DNA of 64,000 nucleotides from an uncultured Gammaproteobacteria bacterium (lineage in GTDB: Bacteria; Pseudomonadota; Gammaproteobacteria; CAISUE01), in the NCBI GenBank assembly GCA_903888615.1, contig CAISUE010000046.1:1016-65015 (forward strand), in the 5' to 3' direction. The position numbers are program-made. Of this stretch, positions 27,001-30,000 are shown piece after piece. Within the stretch, counting starts at the first letter, position 1. The number at the start of each line of letters is the position of its first letter.

Positions 27001-30000
27001 TACGCCGGTTATGTTACATCGAGCGATTTGCGGTTCACTGGAACGTTTTATCGGCATTTTATTAGAACATCATGCAGGCTTGTTGCCGGCGTGGTTAGCG
27101 CCTGTGCAAGCGGTGGTAATGAATATTTCCGAAAAACAAAGTATCTATACGGAGCAATTAACTGCTATATTACGCACTTTGGGCGTTCGTGTGAAAGCGG
27201 ACTTGAGAAATGAAAAGATTGGCTTTAAAATTCGTACCCATACCCTTGCAAAAGTACCTTATTTGTTAGTGGTGGGTGATCGAGAAGCTGAAAACAACCA
27301 AGTATCCGTAAGAACGCAGCAAGGACAAGATTTAGGCGTAATGTCCGTGCAAGCATTTAGTCAATTGTTGGAGAGATAATATTAGTACACTCATACAAGA
27401 TAAAAAAACCCGTATAAATCAGCAGATTCGCGTGGCAGAAGTGCGTTTGATTGGCGCCAATGGTGAACAAATTGGTATTGTAAAAATCGGTGAAGCCTTA
27501 AGCATCGCTGAAGATGCCACGTTAGATTTAGTGGAAATTTCACCGAATGCAGCCCCCCCAGTCTGCCGCGTGATGGATTACGGCAAGTATTTGTATGAAT
27601 TGGGCAAGCAAAAAGCTGCTGCCAAGAAGAAACAAAAACAAGTTCAAATCAAAGAAATCAAATTCCGTCCGGGAACGGACGATGGCGATTATCAGGTCAA
27701 GCTACGCAACCTGATACGCTTTTTAGAAGAGGGCGACAAAGCTAAAATCACGGTGCGGTTTCGCGGCCGTGAAATTAGCCATCAAGACTTAGGCTTGAAA
27801 ATGCTCCAGCGTTTGCAAATTGATCTCGGTCCTTTTGGGACCGTGGAACAATTTCCAAAAATGGAAGGTCGGCAGATGGCTATGTTAGTCGCCCCACTCA
27901 AAAAAATCTAAATTTTTTTGAGTGTTTATTATGACCTTGGCAAATTTTATTGGCGAGGTTGTTTATTTAATTTCACTATCAATTATGATAGTGATCAATG
28001 CGAGTTGAATCATGCCGAAAATTAAAACTAACCGTGGGGCCGCGAAGCGTTTTCGCCAAACTGCCAATGGTTATAAGCATAAACAATCGTTTGCCCGTCA
28101 TATTTTGACGAAAAAATCTTCCAAGCGGAAACGGTTTTTACGTGGTACTAAAGCTGTCAAACACTGCGATGTGATGTCTATCCGTCGTATGTTAACCCAT
28201 GCATCTTAAGGAGCTAACCCATGGCTAGAGTTAAACGCGGGGTTACTGCCAGAGCCCGTCATAAAAAAGTATTAGATCAAGCAAAAGGTTATCGGGAAGC
28301 TCGTAGTAAAGTGTACCGTGTTGCCAAACAAGCGGTGACCAAAGCCGGTCAATACGCGTATCGCGATCGACGCGTTAAAAAACGTGAATTTCGTGCTTTG
28401 TGGATTGCCCGTATCAATGCTGCGGTACGTGAATTAGGCATGAATTACAGTCGCTTTATCGCAGGCTTAAATAAAGCCGGTATCACGATGGATCGCAAAA
28501 TGTTAGCGAACTTAGCGTTTCATGATTTAGCCGCTTTTGGCGTGATCGTTGAACAAGTAAAAGTAGCATTAGCTGCTGAATAATAAGCTGCTTAGTGTGT
28601 TTAAAAAACCTCGCCTCGTGCGGGGTTTTTTTATGGCTATGCCCTATGAGTTATACTTATGGTAGTATTTCTACCATAACTTGAGGGAAAGCATCACGCT
28701 GCCAATAAAGAAATTGACCCAGCATTTGATTTAACCTGCTTAGATGGACTTAATCCTAATGAAACGTGGTGAGAGCTATTTTGCTGATTTAGACCCAACA
28801 ATGGGTAGTGAAATAAAAAAATTACGGCCAGTGCTTATTGCTAGCAATAATGCAAATAATAAAGGGTCGAAAACGCCAACGGTTGTGCCCATTACGTTTA
28901 ATGTCACTAAAATTTATTCTTTTGAAGTCTTTTTAGCTGCACAAGAAATAAGATTATTAAGAGATTCAAAAGCGCAATGCTAGCAAACCAGAACGATTTC
29001 CAAACTTCAAATTAAAAATACGCGACTTATGGGCTTTATTAATCCATTACTGCCAAAAATTGCCGCCGTGCTACGATTGCATTTGGATTTGTAAAGATAG
29101 TTACCTTAATTCCACCGTTTAGGAAAGTTATCGCTAAGTTTCCCCTCTGGCGTGTGTTGAATAGTCGCGGTTAAGTCAAACTAAACCGTTGTATCTCTTA
29201 CGAAGGAAGAAAGGATAGCAATGATTTATTCAGGCTATGTTTACGATAAAAAAAATGCATTGCTGGTGTTGGGGTGTGTACACCGTGCCATTGCTTTTAA
29301 GTTGGTGTGCAACACGATAAAGCACCTTAGTAGGGATAGTGGTATCGTGATTTTCGAAAATCTCAACGCGCCTACTTTTCAAACGGATGATCCAGAAGCT
29401 TATAAAAGTGTATTGGAAAATTGTATTGCCACAGCAAGGGTACAATTGCTGGGGCGTTGCATTAAAAACATAATCGTCGTAGCTGAGTGTAATTTGGGTT
29501 TTATCGGGCAAGCAATCTTCCCACGTTTCTTAAGTGAACCCAAGTATTTTTCACCCTTATTCACAGCTATTAACCAAGGCAATCAACAAGTAATCCGGCT
29601 ATTGATCACATCAAGCGAAGCCATTCAGCTGGCGTCCCAAAAGCAATTCCATTTCCATCATGCACTGGATCAAGTGTTATGGGCGCAATTAATCAAAGAA
29701 AGTGTGCTTGAGCTTTATGAGGCGTTGTTAGTCGATCAAGCCGTGTCAGAAATAGAAATCGAAAGTACGCAAGTGCTTGCGCCCGAAGCACAAACAATGG
29801 CTGAAGCGCGAAGCTCCCTTGGTGTAACATCGCCTGTGTTGTCAGAAAGGGAGGCTGATTTGGAATTAGAGCGACATGATAACTCGACGGTTATGTACAC
29901 GACAGAAAGTAATCGCCAGCATGCTGTTAATAGTTGTTTCTACAGGGTATTGATAAAACCTATTGCATCACTATTTTGGTCGATTCGGGAAAAGCATCAC

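Follow-up and report, generated by a model that had tools for sequence, protein, structure and literature searches.

Immediately downstream of the ribosomal protein gene rplT, the genome of an uncultured Gammaproteobacteria bacterium (GenBank assembly GCA_903888615.1, contig CAISUE010000046.1) carries a reading frame with the features of a PemK/MazF toxin that ends at an in-frame TAG. This locus raises the question of whether it is a toxin gene still at work, an assembly error or what is left of a toxin–antitoxin (TA) system. The window analysed here is the whole 64,000-nucleotide stretch of that contig (positions 1,016 to 65,015), and all coordinates refer to it unless another contig is named. 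A first-pass annotation had described the toxin as an orphan, silenced by the TAG, without an antitoxin and with an operator-like palindrome upstream, and had read the locus as a decaying TA module. The TAG-cut toxin and a 5′-deleted antitoxin found next to it support decay of a type II module. The locus is very probably the non-functional relic of a MazEF9-type operon, in which a gene for a ribbon-helix-helix (RHH) antitoxin overlapped a PemK/MazF toxin gene.

The toxin frame has two possible starts, ATG 28744 upstream and ATG 28759, which opens the family-typical sequence MKRGE. As annotated, the open reading frame (ORF) 28744–28983 contains the PemK/MazF motifs and stops at the TAG at 28981–28983. 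The same frame does continue beyond the stop, for 36 codons (28984–29091) and not the 37 counted earlier, and closes with TAA at 29092–29094. Once repaired, the toxin is indeed full-length, although 111 amino acids (aa) long from ATG 28759 or 116 aa from ATG 28744 rather than 117 aa. The reconstructed protein, for which a hidden Markov model (HMM) check had been suggested, matched Pfam PemK_toxin (PF02452, gathering cut-off 23.1 bits) with 63.8 bits (E = 2e-17), and the truncated ORF scored 48.7 bits. Both values exceed the gathering score and place the sequence in the PemK/MazF family; the higher score after repair indicates that the segment behind the stop contributes real signal.

A search of 5.8 billion proteins returned 86 homologues of the toxin, every one of them assigned to PF02452. 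The top match was an identical 74-aa fragment; intact homologues were 110–124 aa long, the best being 65% identical to the window copy. An HMM made from the homologues only, with the window sequence left out, matched 28744–28980 (family positions 1–74, E = 4e-35) and 28984–29091 (positions 76–111, E = 2e-6), which puts the TAG exactly at family position 75. In the alignment of homologues (A1), this column is the His or Gln of SKAQC(H/Q)QIRTISK, encoded by CAT (four homologues), CAA (four) or CAG (two). Homologue L093 has CAATGCCAGCAA where the window has CAATGCTAGCAA, a single C>T difference, so one transition would be enough to give the TAG. The C-terminal LHLD motif, invariant in the family, is kept after the stop. 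Of two residues that the window copy retains, R23 never varies in A1 and T46 hardly does; we take them to be the equivalents of R25 and T48 of Bacillus subtilis MazF, the catalytic residues in the published structure. The conserved Ser47 next to T46 is Phe in the window copy. Owing to the TAG, there is no uninterrupted toxin ORF of family length (about 110–124 aa), and neither ATG is preceded by a Shine-Dalgarno-like sequence. Judged from its sequence, the toxin locus is a family member by descent and, as a gene, a predicted pseudogene.

The toxin is not an orphan, as the last 30 codons of mazE survive directly upstream and still overlap its start. Intact toxins of the subfamily, in all cases whose context was retrieved, have an antitoxin gene of 74–77 aa directly upstream, and the end of this gene (...ETW and the stop codon) overlaps the toxin start within the 14-nt string ATGAAACGTGGTGA. 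The window retains this string as the overlap of mazE stop and mazF start. In a tblastn comparison, the relic was 57% identical to intact antitoxins (E = 5e-10), and an antitoxin family HMM, again made with the window left out, gave a single match in the six-frame translation of the window, at antitoxin positions 46–75 (E = 1.5e-8). The earlier statement that no antitoxin is present holds for an antitoxin-sized ORF and had overlooked this cognate remnant.

What remains of mazE is not a gene. An in-frame TAA (28677–28679) stands directly before the relic, and there is no ATG, GTG or TTG in its frame between 28680 and 28772. The start codon, the ribosome-binding site and the entire RHH DNA-binding domain (codons 1–45) have been deleted, amounting to about 60% of the gene, which leaves the tail as untranslatable DNA. 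The discovery of an unannotated antitoxin gene beside the toxin had been named as an observation that would speak against decay; the element found is a non-translatable fragment, and it strengthens the decay interpretation. In intact relatives, the N-terminal domain is itself recognised at sub-threshold level (ParD_antitoxin/RHH_1, residues 5–45), and their best PDB match is MazE9 (6KYT_P), a weak one (E = 0.0067). The window thus contains neither this domain nor an intact antitoxin gene overlapping the toxin start, only codons 46–75. When aligned to MazE9, the relic falls in the toxin-binding tail, the region of a C-terminal peptide (residues 43–76) that was used for measuring MazF9 binding and is described as being without the dimerising N-terminal domain (PMC9585320).

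Table 1. Features of the mazEF relic and its surroundings in the window.
Feature	Position	Strand	Description
rplT intrinsic terminator	28603–28632	+	Hairpin AAAAAACCTCGC / GCGGGGTTTTTT and T-run; left neighbour, outside the TA module
Lineage-specific insert	28637–30268	.	From the rplT terminator to icd; TA relic and 329-aa ORF (29221–30210)
Putative mazEF promoter relic (TACTTATGGTAGTAT)	28654–28668	+	TACTT and extended −10 box TGgTAGTAT
Palindrome TTATGGTAG-TATTT-CTACCATAA	28657–28679	.	Arms 28657–28665 and 28671–28679; spans the deletion junction
mazE (MazE9-like antitoxin) 3′ relic	28680–28772	+	Codons 46–75 (LEGKHHAANKEIDPAFDLTCLDGLNPNETW) and TGA 28770–28772
mazF (PemK/MazF9-like toxin) 5′ part	28759–28983	+	74 codons from the family start MKRGE to the nonsense codon
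Inactivating TAG	28981–28983	+	Family position 75; His or Gln in intact members
mazF 3′ part	28984–29094	+	36 in-frame codons after the TAG (QTRTISK...LRLHLDL) and TAA

Upstream of the mazE relic, part of the operon's predicted promoter was recognised. In intact modules, a −35 box (TTGnnT) is followed by the inverted repeat TACTT-N11–13-AAGTA, which brackets an extended −10 box. The consensus TACTTNTGGTANNAT, taken as the majority of the four intact modules L005, L006, L011 and L012, where the element lies 41–52 nt before the antitoxin ATG, matched the 64-kb window once and without mismatch; the chance expectation, with up to one mismatch permitted, was 0.36. Two loci that had not contributed to the consensus, L095 and L096, have the same element at −45 and −52. 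The window keeps TACTT, the left half of the family inverted repeat, together with the extended −10 box, and lacks the right half AAGTA as well as a −35 box. A sigma-70 consensus scan of 28400–29400 found no −35/−10 promoter.

The palindrome noted in the first-pass annotation is real, at a distance of 64 nt from ATG 28744 or 79 nt from ATG 28759 instead of about 55 nt. Its interpretation as an operator did not hold, as the inverted repeat of the relatives is a different one. The left arm overlaps the −10 relic of the promoter; the right arm abuts the first codon of the antitoxin relic and is matched by nothing in intact relatives. The window contains 101 perfect 9-bp inverted-repeat pairs with arms at most 30 nt apart, and a 9-bp perfect inverted repeat alone is not beyond chance. 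Since such repeats are common and the right arm is absent in relatives, we attribute the palindrome to the deletion junction, of which it is probably a by-product, possibly filler for which the neighbouring −10 region served as template. A near-copy with three mismatches lies at 49086–49108, sharing TGGTA-N7-TACCA and the 10-mer TCTACCATAA, in the intergenic space upstream of mutL, between mutL and a divergent 490-aa ORF. The remaining matches to the palindrome core are inside genes. A repeat of the REP or MITE type was considered and ruled out, with one extra intergenic near-copy and the other core matches genic.

Comparison with related genomes defined the origin of the locus. The gene order in the window is thrS-infC-rpmI-rplT; rplT stops at 28583 and is followed by its hairpin and T-run terminator, so the placement of the toxin right behind this terminator in the first-pass annotation was correct. 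The nearest relatives, found through Icd (86–91% identity), keep the synteny thrS-infC-rpmI-rplT-icd-aroE. Their rplT–icd gap measures 310 nt in the sister genome L175 (GCA_947378515.1) and 101 nt in L176, and neither contains a TA gene, a trace of one or a homologue of the 329-aa ORF between rplT and icd. The window and L175 share homologous DNA (92% identity, including the rplT terminator) as far as about 28636, which leaves 17 nt to the promoter relic, and again from the start of icd at about 30269. The absence of both the module and the 329-aa ORF from the sister genomes identifies 28637–30268 as a lineage-specific insertion. An intact mazEF at this position, which the first-pass annotation had proposed to look for in relatives, was not found; there, rplT directly adjoins icd. 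Among the 80 loci listed from GTDB species genomes, none had a PemK gene near rplT, the best RplT match among those listed being 76% identical. The GC-content of the TA relic is 36.2%, compared with 42.9% in the window, and falls within the lowest 5% of stretches of the same size. A different ORF occupies the position upstream of icd in relative L173 (2–538; Icd 89% identical), an unrelated Cys-rich one (CCEGCC...WCCCG), which makes the rplT–icd junction a variable spot for insertions.

Flanking direct repeats that could be an insertion scar were limited to short, chance-level ones such as TGCTAGCAA at 28839 and 28978; by estimate, not computation, about one 9-mer repeat pair is expected by chance in an 800-bp region. 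The 329-aa ORF had no significant Pfam, PADLOC or PHROGs family and no homologue in L173–L176, and PADLOC and PHROGs scans of the toxin gave no significant family either. Rfam scans of the locus, at a permissive threshold, and of the whole window detected no known RNA element; sub-threshold matches fell on the rplT terminator hairpin and one tRNA-Val only.

These observations would fit the following course of events. A mazEF9-type operon was probably acquired horizontally into the variable rplT–icd spot. The toxin would have been inactivated first, one C>T transition having turned a CAG codon for Gln into the TAG, and its inactivation would have removed the selection that keeps the antitoxin, making the 5′ deletion of mazE tolerable. 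About 160–200 bp are missing from the locus, comprising the AAGTA side of the predicted operator as well as the ribosome-binding site and codons 1–45 of the antitoxin, start codon included. If a 74-aa product were made, it would lack the strand and the helix that complete the MazF dimer and the RNA-binding groove and would presumably be inert.

Loci of the same family elsewhere appear at comparable and earlier stages. On L009 (3901–4219; also on L010), which comes from another organism and carries an independent relic, an rlmL-like gene of 733 aa continues in frame at its 3′ end into the last 30–36 antitoxin codons, and the toxin is cut at 72 aa with a nucleotidyltransferase-like ORF directly after it; this is a late decay stage comparable to that of the window. 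The idea that the window and L009 share identical deletion breakpoints was weakened by tblastn, which takes the L009 antitoxin relic back to residue 39. An intact 75-aa antitoxin and a frameshifted toxin were found on L011 (2522–2855; shift at about codon 60) and L012 (1725–2060; codon 80). The latter pair would be expected to represent an earlier decay stage, and assembly error is possible there.

The state of the toxin itself was assessed at the 50 positions with a conservation of 90% or more in the family. The window copy departs at seven of them (I6S, S47F, P54S and others), compared with none or one in 12 homologues of similar identity. Several observations weigh against reading the locus as a dead relic. 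The three most divergent functional-looking members also break 5–13 conserved positions, which makes the excess of changes in the window copy only suggestive. The 336 nt of the toxin contain no frameshift and no second stop, Arg23 and Thr46, presumed to be catalytic, are unchanged, and the divergence of the three surviving parts from intact members exceeds that among the intact members by just about 5–7 percentage points; such light erosion points to fairly recent lesions. As far as sequence alone can tell, low-level read-through of the TAG may occur. The palindrome region folds unusually well, a longer hairpin at 28642–28687 reaching −18 kcal/mol (z = −3.07), and has its one intergenic near-copy. 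Finally, the suggested order with the toxin lost first is drawn from the general pattern and not from this locus.

Alternative explanations were weighed against these data. The sequence is known from metagenomes only, and the premature stop or the absent 5′ half of the antitoxin might have arisen in the sequencing or assembly of a contig that derives from a metagenome; the chance of this is practically nil. Four independent ENA metagenome assemblies (L001–L004) agree with 28584–29220 at 99.8–100% identity over the part that each covers. The TAG is present in all three that reach 28981 (L001, L002 and L003; L004 ends at 28944), and the truncated antitoxin region was seen in four of four, from at least two projects, whose gene callers independently called the 74-aa PemK fragment. 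The TAG is real and no assembly error. A second alternative is a toxin that still works, either as an active 74- or 79-aa fragment or through rare read-through of the TAG yielding small amounts of full-length MazF that are tolerated or used, and the wholly open frame after the TAG, the conserved invariant C-terminal motif and catalytic-position residues, and the light erosion are in its favour. We regard this as extremely unlikely. In the window, TAG is in ordinary use as a stop, closing 5 of the 53 long ORFs, and no suppressor tRNA is encoded, the sole tRNA being tRNA-Val. Such a toxin would have no antitoxin to control it, as the window contains no MazE-like sequence besides the untranslatable relic. 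The lost start and ribosome-binding site of mazE were probably also needed for translation of mazF, given the 14-nt overlap, and neither toxin ATG has a Shine-Dalgarno-like sequence upstream to replace them. A fragment ending at the TAG lacks family positions 76–111, which are conserved in all intact members, and besides the extra changes at conserved positions a polymorphism in L002 (28978 T>G) turns the conserved Cys codon adjoining the TAG into Gly.

The relic could also have been co-opted, its antitoxin tail serving as an anti-addiction peptide against incoming MazF9-like toxins or its palindrome as the site of a host regulator. Similar tails are retained independently in the window (from residue 46) and in L009/L010 (from residues 39–46), the one on L009 would be translated through its in-frame fusion to the rlmL 3′ end, and a peptide of MazE9 residues 43–76 has been used in MazF9 binding measurements (PMC9585320). 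For the palindrome, the near-copy upstream of mutL stands out in that none of 100 shuffles gave any match. However, the tail in the window follows an in-frame TAA and has neither a start codon nor a ribosome-binding site, and with the L009 breakpoint at residue 39 the coincidence between the two relics is loose. The near-copy is only marginal (chance of a second one about 0.04–0.1, estimated and not computed), the other core matches are genic, and the locus has lost the −35 box and half of the predicted operator. Co-option in either form is therefore very improbable. The narrower proposal that survival of MazE9-like tails in the window and in L009/L010 recurs for a reason other than chance, the tail being kept as it still neutralises related MazF toxins, we consider very improbable; if it were true, the tail would be a minimal immunity peptide, and deletions of the RHH domain alone would be a preferred exit route from addiction. 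The non-functional mazEF9-type relic remains the reading that we adopt.

Some further features of the window and its relatives were recorded. The mechanically listed thrS ORF (25418–27379) begins at a TTG within tRNA-Val(GAC) (25388–25462); the true start of thrS is probably the internal ATG just downstream (MITITLPDG...). Assemblies L001 and L002 share a T>C single-nucleotide polymorphism at 28106, within rpmI, that sets them apart from the window. Between aroE and pdxA, two minus-strand ORFs (32310–32738, 142 aa; 32926–33339, 137 aa) have no Pfam match on record, and L173 and L176 have similar-sized ORFs without a Pfam match in the same position. The 490-aa ORF next to mutL (47581–49053, minus strand) contains the motif DGWSCGYH, which resembles Ulp/C48-type cysteine proteases. 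A Peptidase_C48 protein is also encoded on L006 and L007, together with a 2886-aa protein and an intact family member. The C48-like genes in the window and in L006/L007 hint at a host-associated lifestyle.

Beyond correct annotation, the significance of the locus is small. The 74-aa "PemK_toxin" genes in several public metagenome assemblies are pseudogene fragments, and the region upstream of them should be annotated as a mazE remnant and not as empty intergenic DNA. The locus offers a clean case of late-stage TA erosion for which sister genomes still show the ancestral empty site, and it reveals a spot of variable insertion at the rplT–icd junction of this uncultured lineage.

The closest solved relatives are MazF9 and MazE9 of the Mycobacterium tuberculosis MazEF9 (MazEF-mt1) system. 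The repaired toxin aligned end to end with MazF9 (5HJZ; E = 2.5e-16), including the C-terminal LKLHLDL, and MazE9 (complex 6KYT) is the protein most like the family antitoxins, which have an RHH/ParD-like domain at the N-terminus and LE..Y..A..E behind it, though at a weak E-value (0.0067). The order of antitoxin and then toxin with overlapping stop and start is also shared. In contrast to MazEF9, the window copy is dead, with a TAG at codon 75 and an antitoxin reduced to its last 30 codons; its host is an uncultured proteobacterium and not an actinobacterium, and the similarity is moderate. The EndoA/EndoAI system of B. subtilis (MazF/MazE, ydcE/ydcD; 4MDX, 4ME7) belongs to the same PemK/MazF fold family (E = 1.4e-11) and likewise pairs the toxin with an RHH-type antitoxin, and the residues at the R25 and T48 positions are kept in the window toxin. 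EndoA is more distant from the window toxin than MazF9, and the differences due to loss of function apply to it equally. By these comparisons, the locus can be assigned to PemK/MazF and considered MazEF9-like by descent, and it is predicted to fail as a system, having no intact toxin, antitoxin or RHH domain.

Erosion of this kind has been described elsewhere. In Photorhabdus, pseudogenisation affected the toxin only in 185 TA copies, toxin and antitoxin in 186 and the antitoxin only in 8, and the authors propose a two-step decay, toxin first, in high-turnover spots (PMC13617665). An earlier example of chromosomal TA decay is ccdO157 in Escherichia coli, as cited in PMC2654758. The window locus resembles these eroded systems in its apparent horizontal acquisition, its variable chromosomal spot, its pseudogenised toxin and an antitoxin that persists as a DNA remnant. 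It differs in toxin family and host, and its order of events comes from inference and not from phylogenetic reconstruction. The pattern in the window fits the two-step decay published for chromosomal TA systems and is ordinary biology.

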